DNA from: an uncultured Thermoplasmata archaeon
GTDB taxonomy: Archaea > Thermoplasmatota > Thermoplasmata > UBA10834
DNA length: 64,000 nt
NCBI GenBank assembly: GCA_963705355.1
Contig: OY970070.1
Coordinates: 1,906,960-1,970,959, forward strand
Reading direction: 5' to 3'
Within the stretch, counting starts at the first letter, position 1; each line of letters starts with the position of its first letter. Positions 28,341 to 43,547 of the stretch are shown piece after piece. The notes beneath the pieces were generated by a model. The model was not told the DNA's origin. It saw nothing but the letters and a program-made list of their open reading frames with translations, and ran no database searches. A program made the translations under genes and the position numbers.

Positions 28341-28991
28341 ATGCGAGGAAGGATGATATGCGGGGTCGATGAGGCGGGCAGAGGGCCGGTGATCGGCCCG
28401 ATGGTGGTCTGCGCGATCGCGGTCGACTCAGACGCCTCCCTCATCCGCCTCGGCGTCAAAGACTCAAAGAAGCTCGCGCCACATAAACGCGAAGAGCTCG
28501 CACCCAAGATACGCAAGCTGGCCCAGGTCGAACTCATCGAGGTGTCCGCGGAGGAGATCGACCTGAGAGGCTGCTCCCTGAACGAGCTCGAAGCGGATGT
28601 CTTTGCGAAGCTCATCGAACGGATCTCTCCGGACGTGGCATACGTCGATGCGGCAGATGTGAGCGAGGAGCAGTTCGCGAAAATGATCCAAACGAAGATG
28701 AAATGCAAACCGAGGATCGTCTCAGAGCACAAAGCGGACGACACCTACCCCGTCGTCATGGCGGCCTCGATCATCGCCAAAGTCACTAGGGACGCCCGCG
28801 TGAGAGAGATAGAGAAGGAACTCGGCGAGCCCATTGGCTCGGGCTACGCGCATGACGAGATCACCATAGCATTCCTTGAACGGTTCATAGCAGACCACAA
28901 GTGCTGCCCCCCGTACACCCGCAAGTCCTGGGAGACAGCCAAAAACCTAATGATGTTGAACTCTTTGCGGAAGCTCGATACATTCAAGTGA
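28341..28991 (+). CDS. rnhB: ribonuclease HII
   Basis: N-terminal ICGVDEAGRGPVIGPMVVCAIAV (DEAGRG catalytic motif). Length 216 aa. Confidence 0.9.
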   Translation: MRGRMICGVDEAGRGPVIGPMVVCAIAVDSDASLIRLGVKDSKKLAPHKREELAPKIRKLAQVELIEVSAEEIDLRGCSLNELEADVFAKLIERISPDVAYVDAADVSEEQFAKMIQTKMKCKPRIVSEHKADDTYPVVMAASIIAKVTRDARVREIEKELGEPIGSGYAHDEITIAFLERFIADHKCCPPYTRKSWETAKNLMMLNSLRKLDTFK

Positions 28992-29493: not shown

Positions 29494-30663
29494 TTATATA
29501 TTGCCAGATTGCAGAATGAGTCTCTTTCTTTCTTGGATCACCAGCGCCAATCCAACCAGTCTTCTTGCATCATGAGAACAGAATCTCAACTCCCAAATGC
29601 AACTCCAGAATCCGTCATTCTTCAGGGCAAGTCTGGAGACTCCGCAATTCGGTGCCATTCCGAGTCTTGTGAACAGAAGCCTGACGTCATCCAGGATTTC
29701 ACTCCTGCAGGACGAGGCACAGTAGTCATGGACTGACACTCCGAAGACCGTCGAGTCCCTGAGGGTGCCTTTCGATATGCGCCTTGGATCTTTCTCGGTT
29801 GGAGGGGAGGGCAGGATTCCAAGATCAAGGTGTGTGTGTCTGGACTGGGCGATCACGAATGATTTGTTTCCTGTCGAGTGCAATCCGCTGGCGCTCCCTT
29901 CGCCATCGCACCAGGGCTGGAGCGCAGCGATCCATGTCAGCCTATCGTTGGATTTCATGACCCAGGTTGGCAGATGAAGCTCCCTTGCGGACTTGTCGCC
30001 GGGCAAGACTCCGTTCTCAATGAGCCATTCGGCAACGAACCTTGAATAGATGAATCCTCTGATTGCGGCTGCCCCATTCCCCGGCTTCTGTGGGGGCCCA
30101 ATGTCATGAAGGAAGACGTCCCTGCACAGCGACCTAAAGTGATCATATAAATCAGTCTCGTGCGCGGCGAATGTGACATTGACCGCGCATTCTCCCCATT
30201 TCTGCTTCTGGAGCCACACAGACCCTTCGGCCAAGACGTATGAGACGATAGCCGCTGCCTTCCTTCTGAGGTCGTCATCTTTCTCCAGCTCATCTTTGGT
30301 CGGCAGCCTCAACTTGTCCCGGCACATCTCACGAAAAACGCTGATTGCATGCTCGTTCGCCCAGGTCCTATCCTTGGTTATCCCTTTGCCCGTGATTCTC
30401 TCCCCAAGGTCTTTGTCTCCTGCAATCTGGAGCATCTGGTTGAGTATGGAAATCGGCATCGTGAGTCTCCCGATTCGATAGTAGTATACGGACGATTTCG
30501 GCATGTTCAGGTGCTTGGCCAGCTCTTGGCAGTTGCCGAATTTCGCTGCGGCCTTTTCGACCAGTTCCTTCTGCAGTTCCTGTGGCAGTGCGATTCTGTC
30601 CTCTTTTCTGTACGCGCCTCTGGTGCCTCGTGTTGTCATGGTATCCAGAGGGTTGATTCTCAC
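29494..30663 (-). CDS. HTH-containing protein with two LAGLIDADG-like motifs (homing-endonuclease-like, free-standing)
   Basis: Motif 1 IVSYVLAEGSVWL and motif 2 WIAALQPWCDGEGSASG, each retaining the terminal acidic residue. N-terminal HTH-like segment (FGNCQELAKHLNMPKSSVYYYRIG). Its 3' end lies 30 nt from the tRNA-Met 3' end. Confidence 0.55.
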   Translation of the reverse strand: MRINPLDTMTTRGTRGAYRKEDRIALPQELQKELVEKAAAKFGNCQELAKHLNMPKSSVYYYRIGRLTMPISILNQMLQIAGDKDLGERITGKGITKDRTWANEHAISVFREMCRDKLRLPTKDELEKDDDLRRKAAAIVSYVLAEGSVWLQKQKWGECAVNVTFAAHETDLYDHFRSLCRDVFLHDIGPPQKPGNGAAAIRGFIYSRFVAEWLIENGVLPGDKSARELHLPTWVMKSNDRLTWIAALQPWCDGEGSASGLHSTGNKSFVIAQSRHTHLDLGILPSPPTEKDPRRISKGTLRDSTVFGVSVHDYCASSCRSEILDDVRLLFTRLGMAPNCGVSRLALKNDGFWSCIWELRFCSHDARRLVGLALVIQERKRLILQSGNI

Positions 30664-30705: not shown

Positions 30706-31026
30706 ATGTTTGGAAAACAGGCTCCGCTCGGGCCCATCAATAGAAATTCTGATATAGCGGATAAGACACATACGAGGCCCGTGACTTTTCACCAGACATG
30801 CAAGGATGTCAAGAAGGTGCGGCAGCTGTGTCCTGTCTGTCTATTTTGGGATCCGCGTCCCGAGGAGGGGTCTGGCCCGGGTTTCGGGTACTGCGAGAAG
30901 AAGGACTTGATGACTCGGATCAGGTGCGAGTGCGATGTGTTTGAGGAGGCCACGCAGATGAAGGTCGAGGCCCGCAACAGGAAGATCTATGGTCAGATCA
31001 ACGAGGAAGGCGAAGAGGAGGATTGA
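30706..31026 (+). CDS. hypothetical Cys-rich small protein
   Basis: 106 aa with CPVC...YCEK...RCEC and an acidic C-terminus. Weak support. Confidence 0.3.
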   Translation: MFGKQAPLGPINRNSDIADKTHTRPVTFHQTCKDVKKVRQLCPVCLFWDPRPEEGSGPGFGYCEKKDLMTRIRCECDVFEEATQMKVEARNRKIYGQINEEGEEED

Positions 31027-31094
31027 TTGCTGGCCTGTGGTGCGCAACCATTAAGTGGCGGCACTCATGTAGGTTTTTGTCCGGTGGGTTTCTG

Positions 31095-32285
31095 ATGAAG
31101 GCGGTAGTGCTGGCTGCGGGGGAAGGCATGAGGCTTCGGCCGCTGACGGTGTCTGAGCCGAAGGTCATGATCCCGATTGCCAACCGGCCGATATTGGAGT
31201 ACGTTGTCGATTCTCTCGTGAAGAACGATGTTCACGAGATCATCATGGTCGTGGGCTATCGCAAGGAGCGGATAATGTCCCACTTCGAGGACGGGAAGAA
31301 GTTCGGTGCGAAGATCGAGTATGTCGTGCAGGAGAAGCAGCTGGGGAACGGGCATGCGCTTTCCTGCGCGAAGGACCGGCTGTCCGGGGAGTTTCTCGTG
31401 CTTCCAGGGGACAATGTGATTGACAGGCGCGCGGTCAGCGACCTTCTTAGGGCTAGAGCATGTCCAAGCGCGCTCGTTGTCGAGAGCGAGAACCCGTCGA
31501 AGTACGGCGTTGTGACGCTCGAGAAGGGCGCGATCAAGGGGGTTTACGAGAAGCCGACCGAGATGATATCCAACATCATCCTCACGGGCATGTACTGCCT
31601 GAGCGACAGGATATTCCAGTTCGTCGACCAGTGCATTTCCATGGGCGAATATGGCCTCAGCAACGCGGTCCAGGCCAGCTTGGGGTACGATCCTCTGACA
31701 CCTGTGTTCTCGGACGGTCTGTGGATTGACGCGGTGTATCCTTGGGATTTGCTAGAGCTGAACGCGGCCGCGCTCGAGAACCTGCCCGTGCGCACCGCCG
31801 GCAAGATAGAGTCTCAGGTCGTGATCCAGGGACCCGTCGGCATCGGCGAGGAGACGGTGATCAGGGCGGGCACGACGATCTACGGGCCTGTGCTCATAGG
31901 CGACGGTTGCGACATCGGGCCCAATGTGACGATCTTTCCGTCCACTAGCATCGGGAACAGCGTCACGGTCGAGCCTTACACGGTCGTCAAGAACAGCATA
32001 CTGATGAGCAACTGCAGCATCGGAGCGCACTCGTACCTGTCTCACTGCGTGCTCGGATATGGCGTGAAGTCGCAGTCTCACCTGATGGGCGCTGGCGCCG
32101 AGGCCTACGTCAATATCGGGGACGAGTTCTTCAAGGTCCCCCACATAGGATCGATAATGGGCGAGGACACTGCATTCGGCACGGGCGTCTCCGTCGAGCC
32201 TGGGACGATCGTCGGTGCTGGATGCAAGATATCGAGCGGGTCGAAGATCATCAGGAACCTGCCGAACAGGTCGCTCGTCACCTAG
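31095..32285 (+). CDS. glmU: bifunctional sugar-1-phosphate nucleotidylyltransferase/acetyltransferase (archaeal GlmU-like)
   Basis: N-terminal MKAVVLAAGEGMRLRPLT (NTP-transferase G-loop). C-terminal left-handed beta-helix hexapeptide repeats. It sits immediately upstream of glmS. Confidence 0.8.
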   Translation: MKAVVLAAGEGMRLRPLTVSEPKVMIPIANRPILEYVVDSLVKNDVHEIIMVVGYRKERIMSHFEDGKKFGAKIEYVVQEKQLGNGHALSCAKDRLSGEFLVLPGDNVIDRRAVSDLLRARACPSALVVESENPSKYGVVTLEKGAIKGVYEKPTEMISNIILTGMYCLSDRIFQFVDQCISMGEYGLSNAVQASLGYDPLTPVFSDGLWIDAVYPWDLLELNAAALENLPVRTAGKIESQVVIQGPVGIGEETVIRAGTTIYGPVLIGDGCDIGPNVTIFPSTSIGNSVTVEPYTVVKNSILMSNCSIGAHSYLSHCVLGYGVKSQSHLMGAGAEAYVNIGDEFFKVPHIGSIMGEDTAFGTGVSVEPGTIVGAGCKISSGSKIIRNLPNRSLVT

Positions 32286-32297
32286 AGGTCATTTCGA

Positions 32298-34088
32298 ATG
32301 TGTGGCATAGTTGGTTACGCGGGGTGGCGCGATGCGCAGCCCATACTCTTGGATTGCCTGAAGCGGCTGGAGTACAGAGGGTACGATTCGGCTGGGCTGG
32401 CGGTCGTTGGAGACCAGCTCCAGCTGTTCAAGAGCAAGGGCGAGATCGCGGTGCTCGAGGCCGAGATGCCCGTGATGAAGGGCGTCGTGGGGATCGCGCA
32501 CACGAGGTGGGCCACGCAGGGTAAACCGACCACGGAGAACGCGCACCCCCTCGCCGACTGCTCGAACAGGCTGGCCGTCGCTCATAACGGCATCATCAGC
32601 AACTTCATGGATGTGCGTGAGGAGCTGCAGAAGAGCGGCCACAACTTCACATCGGACACCGACACCGAGGTGTTCGCGCACTTGGTGGAGTCGGAGTTCA
32701 AGGATGACCTCGTGAAGGCCGTGCGGAAAGCGCTCGAAAAGGTCGACGGGACGTATGCTTTCGCAGTCGTCTGCGCGGGGTGTGACCAAGTCGTCGCAAC
32801 GAGGCGCGAGAGCCCGCTCGTGGTCGGGCTGGGCGAGGGCGAGAACTTCATCGCCAGCGATGTCACCGCTCTGCTGAAGTACACCAACCGGATGATCTAC
32901 ATCCACGACGGCGAGGTCGTCAGCATCACGAAAGATTCGGTGAGAATAATAGATAGTCAAGGCAACGAGGTCCAAAGGGAGCCAGAGAAGATCACCTGGA
33001 GCCTCGAGGACGCCGAGAAGGGCGGATACCCGCACTTCATGCTCAAGGAGATCTTCGAGCAGCCCGATGCGATCCATGATTCGCTGCTTGGCAGGATCGA
33101 GTCGGTCGAGCCGGAGCCGTTCTTGCAGGGCGACCACTTCTCGAGCGTGAAGATAGTCGCGTGCGGAACATCCTATCATGCTGGCCTCGTCGGCAAGTAC
33201 ATCATCGAGGAGCTTGCGCGGATCCCGACGACTGTCCAGATATCTTCCGAGTACAGGTATTCGTCCGTTTCGAGGGAGAATCCGCTTGTCGTGTTGATCA
33301 CTCAGAGCGGTGAGACCGCAGACACCCTCGGGGCGGCGAGGGAGGCCAAGAAGCGCGGCAACAAGACGCTTGGCATCGCGAATGTGGTCGGGTCTGCGAT
33401 CACCAGGGAGGTGGACCGTACCATTTACACTCGAGCTGGGCCCGAGATCGGCGTCGCGGCGACCAAGACCTTCGTGACCCAGCTCGTTGCGCTGTATCTT
33501 CTGGCCATGGAGCTCGGGATCGAGAACAGGTCATTGACCGCGCAGGCGAGGAGGTCCATGATTGGGATACTGAGGAACCTGCCCAGGTCGGTGCAGGACG
33601 TGCTGAACCAGGCCTCGGAGATCGAGGCGCTGGCAAACAAGTACGCCTCGGCCCGAGACATGTTCTTCATCGGCAGGAGCATAAACTATCCGACAGCCCT
33701 CGAGGGCGCTCTAAAGACAAAGGAGATCTCGTATATCCACGGAGAGGGGTTCCCCGCGGGCGAGCTGAAGCATGGACCGCTGGCTCTGATCTCGAAGGAC
33801 TCCCCAGTGGTGGCTGTCGCCATCAGGGACCACACGTACGAGAAGATGCTTGGGAACATTAGCGAGGTCTCCGCTAGGGGAAGTCCCGTTATTGCGATAG
33901 GTTTCGAGGGAGACACGGAGCTCCCGAGGTACGTGGACGACGCCATCTGGATAAGGGAGATTCCGCCCGTGTTCTCGCCCGTGCCTGTGATCGTCGTGTT
34001 GCAGCTATGGGCATATTACTTAGCCAAGGCGCGTGGGTGCCCGATCGACAAGCCAAGGAACATCGCTAAGACGGTGACGGTGGAGTAG
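32298..34088 (+). CDS. glmS: glutamine--fructose-6-phosphate aminotransferase (isomerising)
   Basis: N-terminal MCGIVGY (Ntn Cys). Two SIS domains. C-terminal ...PRNIAKTVTVE. 596 aa. Confidence 0.9.
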   Translation: MCGIVGYAGWRDAQPILLDCLKRLEYRGYDSAGLAVVGDQLQLFKSKGEIAVLEAEMPVMKGVVGIAHTRWATQGKPTTENAHPLADCSNRLAVAHNGIISNFMDVREELQKSGHNFTSDTDTEVFAHLVESEFKDDLVKAVRKALEKVDGTYAFAVVCAGCDQVVATRRESPLVVGLGEGENFIASDVTALLKYTNRMIYIHDGEVVSITKDSVRIIDSQGNEVQREPEKITWSLEDAEKGGYPHFMLKEIFEQPDAIHDSLLGRIESVEPEPFLQGDHFSSVKIVACGTSYHAGLVGKYIIEELARIPTTVQISSEYRYSSVSRENPLVVLITQSGETADTLGAAREAKKRGNKTLGIANVVGSAITREVDRTIYTRAGPEIGVAATKTFVTQLVALYLLAMELGIENRSLTAQARRSMIGILRNLPRSVQDVLNQASEIEALANKYASARDMFFIGRSINYPTALEGALKTKEISYIHGEGFPAGELKHGPLALISKDSPVVAVAIRDHTYEKMLGNISEVSARGSPVIAIGFEGDTELPRYVDDAIWIREIPPVFSPVPVIVVLQLWAYYLAKARGCPIDKPRNIAKTVTVE

Positions 34089-34092
34089 CAGC

Positions 34093-35109
34093 TCACGCGA
34101 GCCTTTCCGGGCACGCTTCTCTTCGGGAGCAGTTCCTGCACTTGCCCGGCCTCTCATGGTTCCTGTGCGCGTTCCCAGTCTCCATGGTCTTCCGCATCTC
34201 ACCCAGCTTCTCCAGGAGCACTTTCTTGAGATCCTCATTGAACTCGATCTCGTGCTCGTGCTCCGGATACCTGATGATTCCGTAAGGCGGAGCCTTGCCC
34301 GTGCTCTCCTCGATAAGCAGAGAGTACGCCGCGACCTGAAGGATGTGCGAGAACAACGGCCCTCGCGGAGTCCTGCCGGTCTTAACCTCGACAGGGATCA
34401 GGTTCTGGTTTGCCTTGATCACGTAGTCCGGTCTTCCCGATAGACCGTACTTCTCGGACTTGAAGACCTTCGATTCGCCCATGTCGATATACTCTATCTT
34501 CCCTCGGACACTGTATTCTTTCTTCAGGGACTCGACGATGCCGGTAGATCTCAGAGTCCTGTACATGAAAAACGACGCCCCCACCAGCCATATGATCGCA
34601 GTCGCCTCCAGCGCCTCAGCAAGCCTGACATCTGTTATCAGGAACGCGACGGCGTTGACGGCGATGAGCACTGCTATGATCGCGAAAGTGAGAATGAGTT
34701 TCTCGTAGTTCACAACGCTGCTGTGAATTGTCGACTTCGTTGCCCTGTACAAGAAGTAAGTTGCTGCGAGCATCCAGATTAGCGCAACCACACCGAGCAC
34801 TTGACTGAGGGTCAGCGAGTTCTTCGTGGGAAGAACATCCAGCCCGACAATGGAGATGAGGGTGGCCACGACTGCCCACCAGAAAACAAGCCTCTCCGAC
34901 TCCCGGGCGGTCTTCTCGCCCGAGTCGATCTTCCAAAGGGATTTGCCGAGCTTTTCGTGACCCTTGATTCCCTCCGCGAGCTCCTGGGTCTCCCCTTCGA
35001 AATCCTGGCTCAGCCACCAGCTCAGGGGGCAATAGCTGTACTTCTCGAGATCCCCGGCCGAGATGAACTTGCTCGGGCCACGCGCCATGCGTGAAATTAC
35101 AATTGTCAA
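34093..35109 (-). CDS. Cas4-like PD-(D/E)XK nuclease with Fe-S Cys cluster, interrupted by about 4 TM helices (membrane-embedded)
   Basis: N-terminal YCPLSWW (Cas4/DUF83 first Cys). Core GRPDYVI, PVEVKTG (ExK), HILQVAAYSLL (QxxxY), PPYGIIRY. C-terminal CRNCSRREAC. Four hydrophobic helices lie between the N-terminal Cys and the nuclease core. Confidence 0.55.
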   Translation of the reverse strand: MTIVISRMARGPSKFISAGDLEKYSYCPLSWWLSQDFEGETQELAEGIKGHEKLGKSLWKIDSGEKTARESERLVFWWAVVATLISIVGLDVLPTKNSLTLSQVLGVVALIWMLAATYFLYRATKSTIHSSVVNYEKLILTFAIIAVLIAVNAVAFLITDVRLAEALEATAIIWLVGASFFMYRTLRSTGIVESLKKEYSVRGKIEYIDMGESKVFKSEKYGLSGRPDYVIKANQNLIPVEVKTGRTPRGPLFSHILQVAAYSLLIEESTGKAPPYGIIRYPEHEHEIEFNEDLKKVLLEKLGEMRKTMETGNAHRNHERPGKCRNCSRREACPERLA

Positions 35110-35112
35110 GAG

Positions 35113-35928
35113 TTAATAATGTTTGCCAGGCACGTGGTCCCGTTTGCGGTCGTCGAAGAATGTGCCTGGTAGGAGCATGACGCCTTCGGGTGGCTCTATC
35201 CCTTCGACGAACCCGAACCAGTACACGACGGCTCCCGTGCCGAACATCTCCGTGTAGGGCTTCAGCTGCCTGCGAACATTCTTGCGCAGCTCTATGTCGT
35301 CCCCGAACGAGGCCTTCGACTCGATCCAATGAATCTTCATCCCATCGATCTGGATTGGCTTGTCCAGGAGGCAGTCCGGAGTTTTCTTGTGGGTGTTCCT
35401 GAGGTCGATCTCGGTCCTGTACTTCAGCTGTCTCGCGTCCAACCAGTCTTGGAGCTTCTTCTCACCCCAGACGCCTCTCTCGGTCTGGATCTGAGCCCCT
35501 CTGGGGGAGTAGATCATGTCCTCCTCGGCGATCTGTATTAGCTCCTTTCTTAAACGCCTGTCATGGCACGAGTCCGGGTCTCTGATGTACTTCCAGAACT
35601 GCTTCCTGGGGAGCCCGATTTCCGAGCCCAACATAAGCCCGAGGAGCACCGGAGGGAAGTTGATCATCCTGGCAATCTTGGCCATCGAGGTGTCTCTTCG
35701 CCATTCTCTCGCGATCTTCTTGATGTCCTTCTTGACGATGTAGAACCTTCGCGTCGCATCCCTGACGGTCCTTTGAGTGTAGAGGACCAGGAGGAATTCG
35801 CGGTCCACGCCTAGCTTCTGCGCGAGATGATCTATGTCAGAGGGTTTCTTCAGCTGAGAATATATGTTCTTGTAGTCTTCGTACTTCATCAGTTCACAGT
35901 CCAGCAAGCTGCTGAACGAAATGTTCAA
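35113..35928 (-). CDS. TPD-motif / CDIN1 (C15orf41)-like putative PD-(D/E)XK nuclease with N-terminal helical (HTH-like) region
   Basis: KKTPDCLLD...IQIDG...HWIESKAS matches the D...D...ExK arrangement and the Pfam 'TPD' motif family. It lies 3 nt upstream of the Cas4-like gene. Confidence 0.45.
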   Translation of the reverse strand: MNISFSSLLDCELMKYEDYKNIYSQLKKPSDIDHLAQKLGVDREFLLVLYTQRTVRDATRRFYIVKKDIKKIAREWRRDTSMAKIARMINFPPVLLGLMLGSEIGLPRKQFWKYIRDPDSCHDRRLRKELIQIAEEDMIYSPRGAQIQTERGVWGEKKLQDWLDARQLKYRTEIDLRNTHKKTPDCLLDKPIQIDGMKIHWIESKASFGDDIELRKNVRRQLKPYTEMFGTGAVVYWFGFVEGIEPPEGVMLLPGTFFDDRKRDHVPGKHY

Positions 35929-36093
35929 TATGCTTGATTCTGAGGCTGCGTTATAGTCTCACTCTACTTATGCCTTTGCGGAATACCATTATATTCTCCC
36001 AGTTCTCAAGCACCGCAAGCCTGCCTGCACAACCTTGAAATGGACATAAGTCATGGGCGTTGATGCGACGCGAGGTTTTTGAGGGGTGTTTGA

Positions 36094-37191
36094 TTGCCAG
36101 AAAGTGGCACCAGGAAGATGATCCTGCCGGCGAAGTACGTCCAGGGCCCGGGCGTGCTCAACCAGTTGGGCGCGCACGTCAAGCAGTACGGAGAGAGGCC
36201 GTTCGTCGTGAGCGGCCGGACGAGCTTCTCGAAGGTCAAGGCCCGAGTGCAGGCTAGCCTTTTGTCGGCGGGGATTCCGTTGGTCGGCTTCGACGATGGC
36301 GTCTCAGAATGCACTCGCGCCAAGATCAACGAGGTCTCGGAAAAGGCCCAGGAGCTTGATGCGGACGTCGTCATCGGCTGCGGTGGCGGGAAGGCCGTCG
36401 ATACCGCGAAGGCTGTCGCGGAGAAGCTCCACGTTCCTTCGATATCGGTTCCAACTCAATGCGCGACCAACGCGGACGGGATGGCAGATGCTGTGATCTT
36501 CACGGAGGATCACAACTTCCTTGAGGACTTCTACCTGAGCAGAGCTCCTGTCCTCGTGCTCGTCGATACTGAGGTGGTGGGGAGAGCGCCTCCTCAGTAC
36601 ATCGTTCAGGGCATGGGGGACGCGCTGGCATGCGCCTTCGAGAAGCCGGCCTACGCCGAGTCTCAGAGAGCGAAGAGGGCGAGCGATCAGGCGACGACCG
36701 CCGCTCTTGAGGTCAACCTCAGTTGTTTTCAGACGCTGATGGCCCACGGACTGCAGGCCAAGAAGGATGTCGAATCCGGCAAGATCACCGAAGCTGTCGA
36801 AGCAGTGGTCGAGGCCATCAAGCTCAAGAGCGGATTCGGATTCGGAGGCGGAGGCTGCGCTGCTGCTCATGCTGTCCACAACGGTCTAACGGTAGTGCCT
36901 GGAATCGCCAGGAAGCACGGCGAGATCGTGGCCTTCGGCACCCTTGTCCAGATGATCCTGGAGAGGCGCCCGTTGGGCGAGATAGAGAGAGTCATGCGGT
37001 GGTGCAAATCAATAGGCCTCCCCGTACGACTTCAGGACCTCGGAAAGCTCGACAGGAGTCACTTGTCGCTTGCGGCTGAGAAGGCGTGCGATCCGAAGGA
37101 TTCGATGGCTAGCATGCCATTCCTCGTGACGCCCAAGATGGTCCTCGACGCGATCGACGAAATCGATAGGTTGGGAAATGCACTGTCATAG
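36094..37191 (+). CDS. gldA: glycerol dehydrogenase (iron-containing ADH family, GldA-type)
   Basis: Near-identical blocks to GldA: GCGGGKAVDTAKAVA, EAVVEAIKLKSGFGFGGGGCAAAHAVHNGLT, GEIVAFGTLVQMILE. Confidence 0.85.
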   Translation: MPESGTRKMILPAKYVQGPGVLNQLGAHVKQYGERPFVVSGRTSFSKVKARVQASLLSAGIPLVGFDDGVSECTRAKINEVSEKAQELDADVVIGCGGGKAVDTAKAVAEKLHVPSISVPTQCATNADGMADAVIFTEDHNFLEDFYLSRAPVLVLVDTEVVGRAPPQYIVQGMGDALACAFEKPAYAESQRAKRASDQATTAALEVNLSCFQTLMAHGLQAKKDVESGKITEAVEAVVEAIKLKSGFGFGGGGCAAAHAVHNGLTVVPGIARKHGEIVAFGTLVQMILERRPLGEIERVMRWCKSIGLPVRLQDLGKLDRSHLSLAAEKACDPKDSMASMPFLVTPKMVLDAIDEIDRLGNALS

Positions 37192-37320: not shown

Positions 37321-37956
37321 ATGAACAGTCCAATGGGCACGATTTTCGCTCACGGAACCACACCACCGTGGCTTCCGCGAGAGGTTGCTGAAGGCCGCAA
37401 GTTTGCATGGTGGGCACAGATAATGTTCTTCTTGATGGCAGCTGTATGGTTCATCTTGGCCATTGCATCCATCACAATCTACGTCGCCGACGGCGGTCGC
37501 GGTGTGCTCATCGTTGGTGTCTTCGGGTTCTTCGGTATGCTCATCTGCTTCCTGGCTGGCGTGTTCATGAAGAAGACGGTCATCGACGCGATAGACCAGG
37601 GCAGGTTCCATGACGCGAAGAACGACAGCCTCGTTTGGATCATATTCGGGCTTGTCGGATTCGTCATACCCGCGCTCTTCCTGATACTCACATACGCGAA
37701 GCTCGGGGACGCCCTGGCAACGCAGGCGCCTGTAGGCTACCAGCCATATTCGCCTGGGACTGTGGCAGTCCAGCAGCCGGCTCCTTACGCTCCGCCGCCT
37801 GCGCCGATCCAGTCGCCTGCACCGGTCCAGCCAGCCGCGCAGGGCCCACCGCAGTACCATGCGCACCAGACCCCGATGGTCAGGTGCAAGAACTGCAATG
37901 TGCAGTACCCTGTGTTCATGCACTCCTGTCCGAACTGTGGCGCGCCAAAAGAGTAA
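37321..37956 (+). CDS. membrane protein with Pro-rich linker and C-terminal zinc ribbon
   Basis: 3-4 TM helices, a P/A/Q-rich segment, then CKNCNVQYPVFMHSCPNCGAP. Confidence 0.5.
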   Translation: MNSPMGTIFAHGTTPPWLPREVAEGRKFAWWAQIMFFLMAAVWFILAIASITIYVADGGRGVLIVGVFGFFGMLICFLAGVFMKKTVIDAIDQGRFHDAKNDSLVWIIFGLVGFVIPALFLILTYAKLGDALATQAPVGYQPYSPGTVAVQQPAPYAPPPAPIQSPAPVQPAAQGPPQYHAHQTPMVRCKNCNVQYPVFMHSCPNCGAPKE

Positions 37957-39052: not shown

Positions 39053-40207
39053 CTAACCTGCTTTCTTGTTCTGTCCATTGTTCTTCTCGATATCCTGAGC
39101 AGCGTCCAGCAGAAGCTCCATCAGATCGACGACTTTGGTTCCCGGAATCGTTCTGAGCTGAGTCTCGCAGAATGGGCACGAGGTCACGAGCGTCGTCGCG
39201 CCGGTCGACCTCGCCTCTGCGATCCTCTTGGATGCCAGGTCTTTCGAGAGTTTCGGGAATGCCGTCTGCAGACCAGCTCCTGCTCCACAGCACCTTGATT
39301 CGTACCTGTTGTTCGGCATCTCGACGAGAGTAGCAACTGAACTGACGATGACCCTTGGCTCCTCGAAAATGCCGCCCAGTCTTCCGAGGTGGCAGGGGTC
39401 ATGGTATGTCACCCGCTCGGTCGACTTCCTCACCTTGATCTTCCCATCTTTGACCAACTGCGCGATATCCTGTGCAGCATGCGTCACCTTGATGTTTGAT
39501 CCCGCCTTCTCAAGCGACTTCTTGAGCGTCGTGTAGCACCCAGGACATGTGGTGACGATCTTCTTCACGCCGAGTGATTCGAACTTCTTTATGTTCTCCT
39601 TCGAGAGCTCGTCGAACGCCTCTGTCTGCCCGACCCTTTGCAACGTGGAGCCGCAACACGGTTCGTCTTGTCCCATCGTCGCGAACTTCAGTCCCGCCTT
39701 CTGAAGAAGCTTCGCGCTCGCCACCAGGCTGCGGTTCAGCGGCTTTGTGACCGCGGAAGTGCATCCTGCGAAGAATAGCACTTCATGAGACCCAGGCGTG
39801 GCCTTTGGGATATTCAGCCCCTTCGACCATCTGTTTCTCGCGCTCCTCGGCTGGAACCACGGGTTGCCGTAGTTCTTGAGGCTCAGCGCGAGCGATGAGT
39901 GCTCCTTCATCGGCTCCACGCCGTGCTTGAGGAGGTATTCCCTGAATGCCTGCGTGTGCTCGGTGTTCTTGAGGGAGCACCACCTGTCGCAGTTTCCGCA
40001 GAGCGTGCACTCGAACGCTGCTTGGACGACCGCAGGCGTGATCTCGAACTTGCCCTGGAGGAGGCCGAGCATGGTTCTGTTCCTTCCCCTCATGCAAAGG
40101 GTCTTGACTTTGAGGTCCTGGTAGACTGGACAGCCCCTCTCGCAGAAACCGCAAGAGGTCCCGAAGCATGTCTCGAGCTCTTCCTTGAACTCCTCTAGGC
40201 CACTCAT
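39053..40207 (-). CDS. HdrD/GlcF-like Fe-S oxidoreductase (2x[4Fe-4S] plus two CCG domains)
   Basis: CxxCxxCxxxCP motifs near the N-terminus. Two CCG motifs (PCCGST, RCCGAGAG). 4-nt overlap (ATGA) with the upstream GlcD-like gene. Confidence 0.8.
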   Translation of the reverse strand: MSGLEEFKEELETCFGTSCGFCERGCPVYQDLKVKTLCMRGRNRTMLGLLQGKFEITPAVVQAAFECTLCGNCDRWCSLKNTEHTQAFREYLLKHGVEPMKEHSSLALSLKNYGNPWFQPRSARNRWSKGLNIPKATPGSHEVLFFAGCTSAVTKPLNRSLVASAKLLQKAGLKFATMGQDEPCCGSTLQRVGQTEAFDELSKENIKKFESLGVKKIVTTCPGCYTTLKKSLEKAGSNIKVTHAAQDIAQLVKDGKIKVRKSTERVTYHDPCHLGRLGGIFEEPRVIVSSVATLVEMPNNRYESRCCGAGAGLQTAFPKLSKDLASKRIAEARSTGATTLVTSCPFCETQLRTIPGTKVVDLMELLLDAAQDIEKNNGQNKKAG

Positions 40208-41649
40208 TTTCGGCCGCCTTCTCTGAGGAATTTCTTGCCTGGATTGAGGATGCCCTTCGGGTCGAAGATTCTCTTCACCTCTCTCATGTACCTGAGAGAC
40301 GCCCCGTGCTCCAACTCGAGGTACGGGGCCTTCTGGTAGGTGTCGCTCATGAATGTGCTCATGGTCCCTTCGAACGCGACGGCCAACTTGCTGAGCTCAT
40401 CGTGGAACTCCCTGAATCTCCCCACCTCCTCAGCGCTTCTGTAGTCCACGAAAACGGCGCACGAAAGGGAGAAGCCGATGCTATTTGGATGCTCGAGATA
40501 CGCATTCATGCCGATGATCTCGAGTTTGTGTTTCTCGGCGATCTCGACGAACTTATGATAGAACTCCTCGAGCCTCCCCACTGGCACGCCTGGATCCGCA
40601 GCTCCGAACTTCTTCTGCTTCTGGGAGTCCGGCCATTTCTGTTTGAAGGGTTCGAAGTCGAGCGTGTACTTGGAAGCCCACCACGCCTCAACGATCTCAC
40701 GTTCTTCGACCAATTGCCCTTCGAAGTCCTTCGCGATCCTGAGCGCATAGCTTCTCTGCATATCCACAACTTCGGAATCGCCTGCGAATGCGATTGCCAG
40801 AAGAGCCTCCGCCCACGCCGGAATCTCCGGGTCTTTTCCGTACTTCTGCCTGTAGCTGTGTGTGTAGAACTTCAGTCTCCTCTTGCAGTTGATGTGAGCA
40901 GCCTCTATGCACAGGCCGGCCTTCAACAGCCTGCTCAGATAATCCACAGCCGCTCCCATTCTTGGAAAGACAAGCATGTCCACCTTGCGTGATGCGGGGA
41001 TCGGCTCGAGCTTGAGCGTAGCTTCGGTGATGACGCCAAGAGTGCCCTCGCTTCCGGCTAGAAGGTCTTTGAGCTTGTACCCGGACGATGTGAAGTGGGC
41101 CTTCCTGTGGCCCAGCTCTAGGACCTCGCCTGTCCCTGTGACTATCTCCGCGCTCAGAAGGCAGTTGAGTATCTTACCGTACCTGACGCCGAATGTGGAA
41201 TCGTTGTCGCAGGCTATCGCCGAGCCGACCGTGCTGACCCATTTCGACTCGGGTTGGTGTGGAAGCCACAGGTCGTATGGCTGGATGGCGTCATTGACTT
41301 CCTGGAGGGTCGCCCCGGCCTGGACTCTCACAGTCTGGTTCTTAGCGTCGATCTCGATGACTGAGTTCAGCGTCGTGGTATCGATGTATATGCCTCCGTA
41401 GATTGGCACAGCGCCGCCCAGCATTCCAGTGAGCCCGCCCCCTGCGGTCACCGGGATCTCATGGGCATATGCGATCTTGACTATCCTTTGAACATCTCTC
41501 GTAGTCCTCGGCAGAACGACGACATCTGGCGGGACGAATTCGTCGGGAGTCCTGGGGCTCCAGTCAGCGCCATAAACGAACTTCTCCGAAGGGTCCGTGA
41601 GGACTTTCTCCTTCCCCAGAGCCGTTACGAGCTCGTCGATGTAGGACAT
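40204..41649 (-). CDS. FAD-linked oxidase GlcD/D-lactate dehydrogenase-like subunit
   Basis: Starts at internal Met (MSYIDELVTALGKEKVL...) of the 916-aa ORF. FAD_binding_4 blocks (VLPRTTRDVQRIVKIAYAHEIPVTAGGGLTGMLGGAVP, GSEGTLGVITEATLKL). The ORF's upstream 435 codons are low-complexity and antisense to the HD-domain gene. Confidence 0.8.
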   Translation of the reverse strand: MSYIDELVTALGKEKVLTDPSEKFVYGADWSPRTPDEFVPPDVVVLPRTTRDVQRIVKIAYAHEIPVTAGGGLTGMLGGAVPIYGGIYIDTTTLNSVIEIDAKNQTVRVQAGATLQEVNDAIQPYDLWLPHQPESKWVSTVGSAIACDNDSTFGVRYGKILNCLLSAEIVTGTGEVLELGHRKAHFTSSGYKLKDLLAGSEGTLGVITEATLKLEPIPASRKVDMLVFPRMGAAVDYLSRLLKAGLCIEAAHINCKRRLKFYTHSYRQKYGKDPEIPAWAEALLAIAFAGDSEVVDMQRSYALRIAKDFEGQLVEEREIVEAWWASKYTLDFEPFKQKWPDSQKQKKFGAADPGVPVGRLEEFYHKFVEIAEKHKLEIIGMNAYLEHPNSIGFSLSCAVFVDYRSAEEVGRFREFHDELSKLAVAFEGTMSTFMSDTYQKAPYLELEHGASLRYMREVKRIFDPKGILNPGKKFLREGGRK

Positions 41650-41793
41650 ATCCGCTTGCTTGTCAGCGGAGTGCCCATACAAAAGCTTGATTGATGTACA
41701 GTACTGTGCTTTCGATTCCGCAATTCTGAACGGGCAAGGATTCAATACCCTACCTCCGCATTCGAGGCATCGGGAAAAAGCTGGTGCGATGCT

Positions 41794-42690
41794 ATGTCTG
41801 AACAGGATTTGGGAAGCGGCTTGCTGTACGGCCTGAAGATGCCTTCTTCCTATACCGCGCTGGAAGAGAAATCGATCAAGACGATCAACGAGGGTCTCGA
41901 GAGGCATCCTAACGCGCTCAGGGTGTTCAATATGCTCCAGAGCGACGAGGAAACGAACACATATCTGAGCCTCGCGAACTACATAGCCGTTCGGAAGCTG
42001 GGCTACAACGACCATGGCCCGCTCCACGCTCGGATCGTCACCGCAAACGGCGTCAGGCTGCTCAGGATCATTTTGGACAGCAAGCAACTGCAGGTCGATT
42101 CGATCAGCGGCCTGGGGATGTCGGAGGATGACGCCTATGTCATCATTGTTGCTGGCTGCATGTTGCACGACATCGGAAATGCGGTTCACCGGGAGGAGCA
42201 CGAGATCTTCAGTGTCATTCTCGCGAAGGGGATTCTCGAGAGGCTGCTCCCTGCGATATATCCGGACCTGCCAAAGAGAACTGCCGTGATAGAGCAGATT
42301 CTCCATGCGCTCTATGCTCACGATGTCGGCGAGAATGCGCTCACAATCGAGAGTGCGATCGTTGTCATCGCAGACGGGTGCGACATAACGAAAGGCAGAG
42401 GTAGGTTGTCTTTCGACCTGGGCAAACACGATATCCACTCTATCTCTGCTCTTTCGATCGAGTCTGTAGACATCCACAAGGGCAAGACGAAGTTGGTCGA
42501 GATAGAGGTCAACATGTCCAACTCGGCTGGGATTTACCAAGTCCAGGAGACTCTTGCGAACAAGGTCGCGAAGAGCGTCCTGAGAGACTATGTCGAGATC
42601 GTTGCGGAACTCACTCCGTCGAAGACGCCGCCTGAACTCAGGATCCTGGACAGAATTGTCTTCTCTGACGGCAAGTACAAGAACGTCTAG
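41794..42690 (+). CDS. HD-domain metal-dependent phosphohydrolase
   Basis: GPLHARIV... then CMLHDIGNAVHREEHE (HD motif). Confidence 0.7.
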   Translation: MSEQDLGSGLLYGLKMPSSYTALEEKSIKTINEGLERHPNALRVFNMLQSDEETNTYLSLANYIAVRKLGYNDHGPLHARIVTANGVRLLRIILDSKQLQVDSISGLGMSEDDAYVIIVAGCMLHDIGNAVHREEHEIFSVILAKGILERLLPAIYPDLPKRTAVIEQILHALYAHDVGENALTIESAIVVIADGCDITKGRGRLSFDLGKHDIHSISALSIESVDIHKGKTKLVEIEVNMSNSAGIYQVQETLANKVAKSVLRDYVEIVAELTPSKTPPELRILDRIVFSDGKYKNV

Positions 42691-43547
42691 AGCGAGAAGA
42701 GCGGTACTGAGATGAAGAGCATCGCAAGCGCGATGATCTGTCTCAGGTTCAGCTGTTCTCTCAATCTCACCTTGGCAGCAGCGATCGTGACCAGAGGATA
42801 TAGGTTCGTTATCGGAGACACGATAGAGACATTGCCGTTCTGGATTGCAAGGTACAGCGTGATGCCGCCGCCAGCGAGGCACAGAAAGGAGAGTTCGAGC
42901 AACCATACATTCGATTTTGGCCTCTCGAACTTCGCCTTTTCGCGGGCGAGCCAATAGGCGACCCAGATCGATGGACAGACGAGGGCATAGACTCCGATGA
43001 AGTTGGTATCACCGATGTCGGATATCACGCCCTTGGCCATCGCGGCAGATGTCCCCCAGAAGAAGAGCGAGGCAATTGCAAACGCGATCCCCAATAGTTC
43101 GGTCTTCTTCTTGTCATTGCTCCCGTTCCCAGTGGCGTATGTGAATACCAGCATGCTGGTGACGACGAGAACGACGCCGGCTCCCTCACTGAGGCTCATG
43201 GTCTCCCCAAGGAATACAAGCGCAAGCAGGACTGTCCAGGGCGCATAGGCCCCGGCGATCGTACCGACGATGCTGACCTTCCCATGCTTGAGCGATTCAT
43301 AGTATGTCACAAATGCCGCTCCAGAGAGCGCAGCAGCTCCAGCCGCCCGAAGCCATGTTTCAGCAGGGAATGATCCGGGCTCTCTGAACAGAAGCCAATA
43401 GGCGAGCCAGATCACGAAGATGTTGCCACCCAGCAGCAGCAGGATATTGGCCGATGAGACGTTGGTCCTTGTCTCCTTGGCAAGCACCTGGCCAAAGCCA
43501 TACATGATTATAGTTGCGATTGAAAAGGGCAGCCAGAGGAGCTCCAT
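42687..43547 (-). CDS. EamA/DMT-family transporter
   Basis: 10 TM helices in two EamA-like halves. 286 aa. Confidence 0.7.
   Translation of the reverse strand: MELLWLPFSIATIIMYGFGQVLAKETRTNVSSANILLLLGGNIFVIWLAYWLLFREPGSFPAETWLRAAGAAALSGAAFVTYYESLKHGKVSIVGTIAGAYAPWTVLLALVFLGETMSLSEGAGVVLVVTSMLVFTYATGNGSNDKKKTELLGIAFAIASLFFWGTSAAMAKGVISDIGDTNFIGVYALVCPSIWVAYWLAREKAKFERPKSNVWLLELSFLCLAGGGITLYLAIQNGNVSIVSPITNLYPLVTIAAAKVRLREQLNLRQIIALAMLFISVPLFSL

Follow-up and report, generated by a model that had tools for sequence, protein, structure and literature searches.

A 64-kb stretch of chromosome from an uncultured Thermoplasmata archaeon (contig OY970070.1; this whole stretch is hereafter the window) carries, on its minus strand within positions 34093–35928, two adjacent nuclease genes: one of the CDIN1/C15orf41 family, here termed TPD, and one for a Cas4-family nuclease with a predicted membrane insert, here termed Cas4TM. 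Both open reading frames (ORFs) lie at the coordinates given for them in an earlier annotation made from the letters alone (the sequence-only reading). Our analysis supports, with moderate confidence, the interpretation that the pair forms a housekeeping operon of two genes, inherited vertically within Thermoplasmatota and encoding a nuclease pair tethered to the membrane.

Cas4 identity and active-site residues of Cas4TM

Cas4TM is encoded at 34093..35109 (minus strand), where the longest ORF specifies 338 amino acids (aa). Because its database homologues (n = 1499, best E ~1e-211) are mostly of 331 aa, translation probably starts at ATG 35088 (M8), giving a protein of 331 aa. The protein matched the Cas4 profile TIGR00372 over residues 193–334 with 85.9 bits (cut-off 65), the Pfam families PF01930 (7e-10) and PF12705 (9e-12) and the Cas4 models of PADLOC (4e-25), together with DruK nuclease models and a weak Exo5 match at the N-terminus; the Cas4 similarity proposed from the letters was thus recovered by profile search. 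When residues 67–190 were removed, the remaining sequence matched the Cas4 profile at positions 5–179 of 180 with 89.4 bits, and this end-to-end match indicates that Cas4TM is a whole Cas4 carrying an insertion rather than a C-terminal Cas4 fragment fused to something else. The AlphaFold2 (AF2) model, built from an 80-sequence alignment, has a mean predicted local distance difference test score (pLDDT) of 68, with values of 86–94 in the nuclease core and below 50 at residues 319–328. Its best Foldseek matches in the PDB are the Cas4 structures 8d3l, 7mi5 and 4ic1 (E 8e-5 to 9e-4, probability 1.00), followed by MGME1, ACE1 and AdnA.

The Cas4 domain is contributed by two separate parts of the chain. 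The N-terminal segment (residues 15–66; 34912..35067, minus strand), placed by profile alignment, contains ISAGDLEKYSYC27PLSWWL and G47xxxH51. The Cas4/RecB nuclease core (residues 193–338; 34096..34533, minus strand) is defined by the TIGR00372 and PADLOC Cas4 matches, the high pLDDT and the invariant residues. The recognizable motifs are C27-P28, GRPDYVI (225–231), PVEVK (239–243), QVAAY (258–262), PYG (275–277) and C324-x2-C327-x5-C333. Cas4TM has exactly four cysteines in total: the first Fe–S cysteine, C27, is encoded at 35029–35031, and the other three belong to the cluster motif C324xxC327x5C333 at 34111–34140. H51 of G47xxxH51 (34957–34959) is a candidate metal ligand; in the Cas4 protein SSO0001, His62 is a metal ligand, as quoted in PMC13621843. 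The residues C27, G47, H51, D228, K243, Y262, C324, C327 and C333 are invariant in 80 database homologues and 35 genome loci, position 241 is E or D among homologues, and Q258 is kept in 34 of the 35 loci. In addition, a family-specific H315-R-N-H318 (HRNH) motif precedes the cluster motif, being present in 57 of 73 transmembrane (TM)-type relatives compared with 10 of 53 short sequences. On sequence grounds, Cas4TM is a complete Cas4-type RecB-fold nuclease with all catalytic and cluster residues present, as the sequence-only reading had concluded for the 338-aa protein, and it is predicted to bind a [4Fe–4S] cluster through one N-terminal and three C-terminal cysteines.

A transmembrane hairpin insert in Cas4TM

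Between the two parts of the Cas4 domain lies an insert of ~120 aa (approximately residues 68–189) that, by its hydropathy and repeat structure, is a predicted membrane element of two tandem hairpins. Four hydrophobic segments (~75–95, ~101–121, ~137–160 and ~168–184) rise above the usual hydropathy threshold, with 19-residue Kyte–Doolittle (KD19) peaks of 1.9–2.8, and the family-mean profile likewise contains four segments. The AF2 model shows four long helices (42–92, 95–125, 131–154 and 161–198) followed by the alpha/beta core. Self-alignment of residues 63–128 with residues 129–192 scored 100, compared with 27.9 ± 5.2 for shuffled sequences (z = 13.8), indicating that the four helices are two copies of one two-helix unit. 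A hairpin hidden Markov model (HMM) delimited these repeats at residues 68–127 (34729..34908, minus strand; TM1 ~75–95 and TM2 ~101–121) and 133–189 (34543..34713, minus strand; TM3 ~137–160 and TM4 ~168–184), both of which are also supported by hydropathy, the internal repeat and the AF2 model.

The distribution of charge defines a probable orientation. The mean number of K+R over 80 sequences is 0.56 in loop 1–2 and 0.47 in loop 3–4, compared with 4.0 in the N-terminal flank, 4.05 in loop 2–3 and 5.6 after TM4, resulting in a ~9-fold bias across the loops; the outer loops have only ~8–12 residues. By the positive-inside rule and the even number of helices per module, both Cas4 halves are predicted to face the cytoplasm. 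Assembly of the cluster likewise requires both halves to be on the same side, since C27 must meet C324, C327 and C333 at one site, and a module that is always a hairpin keeps the two soluble parts on one side whatever its copy number.

Hairpin copy number and gene splitting among Cas4TM relatives

An exhaustive search of 1.84 billion representative sequences for Cas4TM relatives yielded 86 clusters at E < 1e-30. In complete relatives the hairpin HMM was found in one copy (~265–280 aa), two copies (~320–365 aa) or four copies (~516–596 aa), with a few partial detections. Next in closeness to the nuclease core come bacterial 'Cas4' proteins of 170–180 aa, for example from Anaerolineales; these short proteins start with a single TM helix, and 42 of the 46 lack the N-terminal Cys helix.

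The missing part is encoded separately in the bacterial split relatives, whose similarity to the nuclease core (E 1e-29 to 1e-23) is the closest seen outside Thermoplasmatota. In three Anaerolineales-type loci sharing less than 50% identity with one another (L088:3697–4448, L091:4711–5537 and L092:3744–4528), an upstream ORF of 78–97 aa either overlaps the core ORF by 4 nt or lies 8 nt from it. This small ORF carries ...ASE(I/V)G.(Y/F).(Y/F)C..AW..., then G..H and then one TM helix, which is the part absent downstream, and the downstream ORF (172–178 aa) consists of one TM helix and the nuclease core. Concatenated, the bacterial halves are colinear with the archaeal one-hairpin proteins, and the split falls exactly in the outer hairpin loop. 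That the gene is divided within this loop, so that each half retains one helix, is hard to explain unless the hairpin is a real membrane element joining the two halves. Together with hydropathy, the AF2 model and the hairpin HMM, these split forms uphold the ~120-aa insertion with four membrane helices described in the sequence-only reading; the alternative that it had named beforehand, that the hydrophobic segments are buried core helices, is contradicted by the repeat module, the charge bias and the loop-split bacterial genes.

The genomic contexts of these relatives differ from that of Cas4TM. In two of the three split lineages (Chloroflexota-type; L088:2244–7615 and L092:2676–7776) the gene order is SSB, (DUF3467), a translin-family gene, Cas4N, Cas4C, NAD kinase, an unknown gene and RecN; the translin-family gene lies directly upstream of the split pair, its match scoring 27.1 bits against a cut-off of 25.9. 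The split bacterial loci contain no TPD gene. Among other Thermoplasmata, the 3.58-Mb chromosome CP070629.1 (L083) encodes an 8-TM Cas4 that adjoins L15e and FtsZ and has no adjacent TPD; further contexts with no adjacent TPD are a 4-TM Cas4 beside L40e and a 2-TM Cas4 beside pyruvate:ferredoxin oxidoreductase genes. A Thermoplasmata-type multi-hairpin TM-Cas4 (P0440; L087:5001–6908), located beside L15e and likewise with no adjacent TPD, is fused to two C-terminal RNA-binding TRAM domains (PF01938, 1.5e-15). Ribosomal protein genes found next to other Thermoplasmata TM-Cas4 genes are L15e, L40e and also L7Ae. In a distant Thermoplasmata lineage with no adjacent TPD, a conserved small ORF of ~54 aa (MEELLVHFDVYKDNKKYYAKVKSE...) precedes the 4-TM Cas4 beside L40e (L085:491–697 and L086:4850–5014); it abuts the Cas4 gene in L085 and overlaps its start in L086, and a Pfam scan assigned it to no family. 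The ORF at L081:3–641, which overlaps the start of an 8-TM Cas4 gene by 4 nt, was considered as a TPD homologue and rejected, as it encodes a lamin-tail-domain protein (PF00932, 1e-18).

TPD is a full-length member of the CDIN1 family

The TPD gene occupies 35113..35928 (minus strand). Its longest ORF, from TTG 35928, specifies 271 aa; its homologues (n = 910, best E ~1e-160), which NCBI names 'C15orf41 family protein' or 'TPD domain-containing protein', are mostly of ~258 aa, and the start is therefore probably ATG 35889 (M14; 258 aa). The protein matched PF14811 with E 1e-42 and 145.7 bits (cut-off 27) over profile positions 2–130 of 138, and its catalytic candidates, E156 (35461–35463), D185 (35374–35376), E203 (35320–35322) and K205 (35314–35316), of which the last three lie in the motifs KTPD (182–185) and ESK (203–205), are invariant in sets of 14, 58 and 35 sequences. 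The assignment of the upstream gene to the CDIN1/C15orf41-type PD-(D/E)XK proteins in the sequence-only reading is thereby confirmed. The active-site residues of human CDIN1 are E166, D196, E214 and K216 (PMC13463051), and the catalytic spacing is 29/18/2 in the archaeal protein and 30/18/2 in the human one, the two being matched by spacing and by the Pfam alignment rather than by direct alignment with the human sequence.

The AF2 model of TPD (pLDDT 92.3) shows eight helices (residues 1–123 of the 258-aa form) followed by an alpha/beta nuclease domain. In gene coordinates, the N-terminal all-helical domain (residues 14–122), which is defined by the model and contains an invariant YTQRTVR motif, corresponds to 35563..35889 (minus strand), and the PD-(D/E)XK nuclease domain (residues 123–248, the extent of the Pfam match) to 35185..35562 (minus strand). 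The N-terminal domain has weak Foldseek matches to helix-turn-helix (HTH) proteins, and human C15ORF41 has a predicted layout of a double helix-turn-helix plus PD-(D/E)XK (PMC7261414); the modelled helical domain of TPD fits as the counterpart of the predicted CDIN1 double HTH. A PDB sequence search found no CDIN1 structure and no solved structure for the family. Archaeal CDIN1 orthologues have been noted earlier, restricted to Euryarchaeota and with a human–archaeal E of 1e-34, and Codanin-1 was reported to be absent from archaea (PMC7092493). In a 2026 report, human CDIN1, which is an anaemia gene product, showed 3′ RNA exonuclease activity towards dsRNA and RNA:DNA hybrids without cleaving DNA, and Codanin-1 changed its substrate range (PMC13463051). 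Judged by its length, profile match and intact E-D-ExK site, TPD is a full-length orthologue of eukaryotic CDIN1/C15orf41.

Conservation and inheritance of the TPD–Cas4TM operon

To survey gene neighbourhoods, one genome per GTDB species was searched with a TPD alignment as the query; 293 species had a relative, and the best 80 of these 293 were examined, with only a handful of more distant loci beyond them. These best 80 TPD-bearing species are Thermoplasmata and Methanomassiliicoccales. Cas4TM lies directly downstream of TPD on the same strand in 68 of the 80 genomes, or 68 of the 76 in which the contig continues past TPD, and its homologues in these loci go down to 36–47% identity in complete genes. 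The spacer between the two genes was measured in 43 genomes, from the TPD stop codon to the ATG most closely preceding the conserved ISAxDLE motif; its median is 27 nt and it ranges from 3 to 99 nt. In the window, the spacer from the TPD stop (TAA 35113–35115) to the probable Cas4TM start at ATG 35088 is 24 nt (35089..35112, minus strand). The 3-nt spacing given in the sequence-only reading holds for the alternative start at TTG 35109, and is replaced by 24 nt for the likelier ATG; its conclusion that the two genes form an operon is borne out by the adjacency and by the median spacer. A spacer of 24 nt leaves no room for a separate promoter, and from this TPD and Cas4TM are probably co-transcribed. 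The operon promoter presumably lies in the intergenic region between TPD and the divergent gldA-like gene (35929..36093), which is A/T-rich with TATA-like stretches.

Gene order is constant in the surveyed loci: alaX, a membrane zinc-ribbon gene and (gldA), then TPD and Cas4TM, then convergent glmS and glmU, and the same housekeeping neighbours recur in 60 or more genomes. Furthermore, the pairwise identities of TPD, Cas4TM and GlmS across 35 complete loci are correlated with r = 0.95–0.97, and after GlmS is regressed out the TPD–Cas4TM correlation is 0.33. No viral relatives of TPD or Cas4TM were found in IMG/VR contigs. The fixed synteny, the co-divergence with GlmS and the failure to find viral copies, or defence genes among the ORFs scanned, together characterize a vertically inherited housekeeping pair rather than a defence island or mobile element.

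TPD without an adjacent Cas4TM was seen in L053, L066 and L043 (and in L050, L061, L063, L073 and L075). Some Methanomassiliicoccales have lost the adjacent Cas4TM and have glmS directly after TPD, and others have TPD in a different context.

Proposed role and alternative explanations

In the mechanism that we propose, the Cas4TM chain would exit the cytoplasm after the N-terminal Cys/His helices, cross the membrane four times as two in–out–in hairpins and return ahead of the catalytic sheet, and the assembled nuclease domain would be held at the cytoplasmic face of the membrane on continuous helices running out of TM1 and TM4. The membrane Cas4 may act as a platform that recruits the soluble, co-expressed CDIN1-like nuclease, in the partner role that Codanin-1 plays in animals, and the two proteins may form a physical complex. 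Such a pair would trim or degrade nucleic-acid ends at the membrane, the CDIN1-like enzyme attacking RNA 3′ ends within RNA:RNA or RNA:DNA duplexes, with single-stranded or 5′ ends left to the Cas4 domain. Its role would be constitutive nucleic-acid turnover or repair, and not CRISPR adaptation or inducible defence. Three independent RNA-linked associations, namely the CDIN1 partner, the TRAM fusion and the upstream translin gene in two Chloroflexota-type lineages, make an RNA-containing substrate plausible for the membrane Cas4. The ribosomal protein genes beside other Thermoplasmata TM-Cas4 genes are a further hint in the direction of RNA.

Several observations weigh against this interpretation. 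Overall, the AF2 model of Cas4TM reaches only moderate confidence (pLDDT 68), and the predicted topology is derived from hydropathy, charge bias and comparative logic rather than from a dedicated predictor or experiment. Characterized Cas4 enzymes, including the solo-Cas4 of M. mazei, cut DNA and not RNA (PMC12501428), and an earlier study saw no nuclease activity for C15ORF41 (PMC7261414). The bacterial relatives adjoin SSB and RecN, a context that speaks for DNA repair no less than for RNA. Eight of the 76 genomes have TPD without an adjacent Cas4TM, glmS following TPD within 0–370 bp in two of them, and other Thermoplasmata lineages possess TM-Cas4 with no TPD gene beside it. Adjacency within a frozen syntenic block may also partly reflect inheritance and not function. 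As TPD and TM-Cas4 each occur alone in some lineages, the two proteins can exist apart, and their partnership is specific to one clade.

The location of SSB and nadK–recN beside the bacterial forms, together with DNA cleavage by characterized Cas4 enzymes, makes DNA repair the main rival. In the manner of AddB, DNA2 and MGME1, Cas4TM would then resect the ends of chromosomal DNA attached to the membrane, and the CDIN1-like protein would be a structure-specific nuclease for DNA or hybrids. Cleavage of ss/dsDNA by both Cas4 and solo-Cas4 enzymes (PMC12501428), the presence of MGME1 and AdnA among the Foldseek relatives, the position of the bacterial split relatives between SSB–translin and nadK–recN in two diverged lineages and an RNase HII gene 5 kb away in conserved synteny are all consistent with such a role. 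We nevertheless regard repair or recombination at the membrane as unlikely: none of the archaeal loci surveyed has a helicase, Mre11/Rad50 or HerA/NurA-type partner next to the pair, end resection has no clear need for a membrane anchor, the bacterial nadK–recN pairing may be independent synteny, and CDIN1 did not cleave DNA in the 2026 study (PMC13463051). Entry-point defence, DNA uptake and mere synteny are less likely explanations. That the two genes have unrelated functions and are neighbours only through a frozen syntenic block has a rather low probability, even though each gene occurs without the other as described above, the whole region from alaX to glmU is syntenic and the residual co-evolution is modest (partial r = 0.33). 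TPD and Cas4TM are encoded on one strand, their median spacer of 27 nt leaving no space for a promoter, and they are the sole co-directional tight pair in the block, the other genes being divergent or convergent to them; moreover, both are nucleases and CDIN1 is known to need a partner.

Searches for CRISPR and defence components bear on a further alternative. In the 64 kb of the window, Tandem Repeats Finder (TRF) detected no CRISPR-like array, and the 39 larger ORFs scanned gave housekeeping Pfam matches or no family, without any cas or defence family among them; a small cas2-like gene could lie outside that set. These results agree with the absence of cas1/cas2 and CRISPR noted from the letters, and CRISPR adaptation in trans is unlikely given the lack of detected cas genes, the core-genome location and the membrane-tethered protein. 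The remaining possibility of innate, CRISPR-independent entry-point defence, in which a membrane Cas4 and a CDIN1-like nuclease destroy incoming viral or plasmid nucleic acid, draws on the frequency of Cas4 and PD-(D/E)XK domains in defence systems, on the matches of the Cas4 domain to the Cas4 and DruK models of PADLOC-DB 2.0, on a membrane location suited to interception and on the defence roles often suspected for solo Cas4 genes (PMC5704561). However, the Cas4 domain matched no other models there, TPD matched none at all, and no single described system was matched by both genes. Defence is also quite improbable for a pair that co-diverges with GlmS at a core-genome position fixed across two orders, has glmS, glmU, gldA and alaX and not defence or mobile-element genes as neighbours, is not patchily distributed among the 80 loci and has no viral or mobile copies that we could find.

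Uptake or export, in which the nuclease would process imported DNA during competence or DNA packaged into vesicles, accords with a membrane-embedded nuclease and with the formation of rings by some Cas4 proteins (the SSO0001 structure is called toroidal in the title of its paper, as listed in the reference section of PMC13621843, and M. mazei solo-Cas4 runs at 318 kDa, PMC12501428). Yet it appears extremely improbable, as the nuclease is placed inside the cell by the distribution of charge, whereas an uptake nuclease would act outside, the outer loops are so short (~8–12 residues), and the 80 loci contain no pilus, ComEC-like or Ced-like genes. The suggestion of a DNA-uptake or defence-related function in the sequence-only reading is therefore not sustained by the core-genome synteny, the co-divergence and the viral, neighbourhood and PADLOC results described above. 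The housekeeping operon with a membrane-tethered nuclease pair remains our preferred interpretation. A broader and improbable extension of it would place Cas4TM in an ancient class of membrane-integrated Fe–S nucleases of archaea and bacteria, in which the cluster is assembled across the hairpin (in bacteria, from two polypeptides) and which, as some soluble Cas4 proteins assemble into large oligomers, may form an oligomeric membrane-anchored platform or portal; CDIN1 would be its ancestral partner in Thermoplasmatota, and human CDIN1, an anaemia-linked nuclease that is still poorly understood, would derive from a membrane-tethered module for surveillance of RNA or RNA:DNA hybrids, passed between Thermoplasmatota-like archaea and early eukaryotes.

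Gene neighbourhood and other features of the window

The window is ordinary archaeal chromosome. The nearest GTDB genome is an uncultured Thermoplasmata metagenome-assembled genome (JBASRQ010000030.1), with protein identities of 96% and 95% for the two genes. On one side the operon is flanked by the convergent genes glmS (32298–34088, plus strand) and glmU (31023–32285, plus strand), and on the other by the divergent gldA-like iron alcohol dehydrogenase gene (36094–37191, plus strand). Beyond the latter, positions 37321–37956 (plus strand) encode a membrane protein of 211 aa in which a proline-rich linker is combined with a zinc ribbon at the C-terminus (weak PF13240 match); this gene is kept in 46 loci and in Methanomassiliicoccales is the immediate upstream neighbour of the TPD gene, in divergent orientation. 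An RNase HII gene (28341–28991, plus strand) is located ~5 kb away and shares the syntenic block of the operon in 11 loci. RNase H2 is reported to be among the top genetic co-dependencies of CDIN1 (PMC13463051), and the proximity of RNase HII to the operon may be a coincidence.

The window also encodes glutamate synthase subunits, SecY, an MttB-family methyltransferase, two tRNAs and a family-B DNA polymerase, whose ORF (48472–50949, minus strand) is interrupted by an intein splicing domain (PF14890). A 389-aa ORF adjoining tRNA-Met (29494–30663, minus strand; family f18) has no Pfam or PADLOC match and is kept in ~18 related loci. At 39053–42954 (minus strand), an operon-like pair comprises a 916-aa FAD-binding oxidase (PF01565/PF02913), in which the long N-terminal half has no assigned domain, and a CCG/4Fe-4S (HdrD/GlcF-like) protein; the pair is syntenic in many loci (families f13 and f7). 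A 962-aa protein (52475–55363, plus strand) has a C-terminal KaiC-like ATPase/DUF7504 domain preceded by a long N-terminal region with no assigned domain.

Novelty and implications

By profile assignment, each domain of the pair belongs to a known family. Literature searches on C15orf41 with Cas4, PF14811/TPD, Cas4 with transmembrane, and Cas4 with Thermoplasmata and membrane returned no account of the family or the pairing, most subscription journals lying outside the search, and no paper linked the two families or described a transmembrane Cas4; the words 'transmembrane' and 'TPD' are absent from the 2017 phylogenomic survey of Cas4 (Hudaiberdiev et al., PMC5704561). The sequence-only reading had called the function of the pair uncharacterized, which agrees with these searches. 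The hairpin-embedded Cas4, its modular copy number, the bacterial split form and the operon with CDIN1 are thus apparently undescribed, although prior mention elsewhere is possible. Databases label all of the TM-Cas4 proteins 'CRISPR-associated Cas4', a label that is misleading on the genomic context of this subfamily.

These observations indicate that a Cas4/RecB Fe–S nuclease can be built around a TM hairpin, present in one, two or four copies in archaea and serving as the split point in bacteria, and they provide CDIN1 with a conserved prokaryotic operon partner. The archaeal TPD–Cas4TM pair is small and defined by its partner, and could lend itself to expression studies on the function of CDIN1-type nucleases and on their need for a partner. 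In archaea, little is known of machinery that processes nucleic acids at the membrane, and the pair adds a candidate for such an activity.

Comparison with known systems

Cas4TM shares with the Cas4 proteins of known structure (SSO0001, 4ic1; Pcal_0546, 4r5q; type I-C and the Cas4–Cas1 fusion, 8d3l and 7mi5) the RecB core D, ExK and QxxxY, the arrangement of one N-terminal and three C-terminal cysteines (CX2CX5C) and a metal-ligand His on the N-terminal helix. It differs from them in the ~120-aa two-hairpin insertion between the N-terminal helices and the core and in the family-specific HRNH motif before the cluster. CRISPR-associated Cas4 is a soluble single domain of ~170–220 aa, whereas Cas4TM has 331–338 aa with two TM hairpins; in addition, Cas4TM has no cas1/cas2 that we could find, no array in the window, a core-genome location and a CDIN1-like operon partner. 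The solo-Cas4 proteins (PMC5704561; M. mazei, PMC12501428) resemble Cas4TM in being archaeal, in lying away from CRISPR-cas loci and in having four conserved cysteines. By comparison, the described solo-Cas4 is soluble, that of M. mazei forming a soluble complex of ~318 kDa (PMC12501428), and Cas4TM is predicted to be membrane-embedded.

Human CDIN1 and archaeal TPD share the Pfam family, the two-domain layout and E...D...ExK, with lengths of 281 and 258 aa, respectively. The partner of human CDIN1 is Codanin-1, which is reported to have no archaeal counterpart (PMC7092493), whereas the conserved neighbour of archaeal TPD is the membrane Cas4, and RNA exonuclease activity is known only for the human protein (PMC13463051). 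MGME1, EXO5, DNA2 and AddB-type enzymes have the same fold as Cas4TM, and the last three also the same split-cysteine Fe–S arrangement; they are, however, soluble DNA-end processors, often fused to helicases, and none has a membrane insertion. The bacterial split membrane Cas4 (L088, L091 and L092) shares the N-terminal Cys/His helices, the TM hairpin and the core with Cas4TM, and differs from it in being encoded by two genes, in having one hairpin only and in lacking a TPD gene. A functional analogy is offered by bacterial RNase Y and RNase E. These enzymes differ from Cas4TM in having unrelated folds, no sequence relationship and a single N-terminal or amphipathic helix as anchor; like the arrangement that we propose for Cas4TM, they face the cytoplasm, are held at the inner face of the membrane and provide a platform for partner nucleases.

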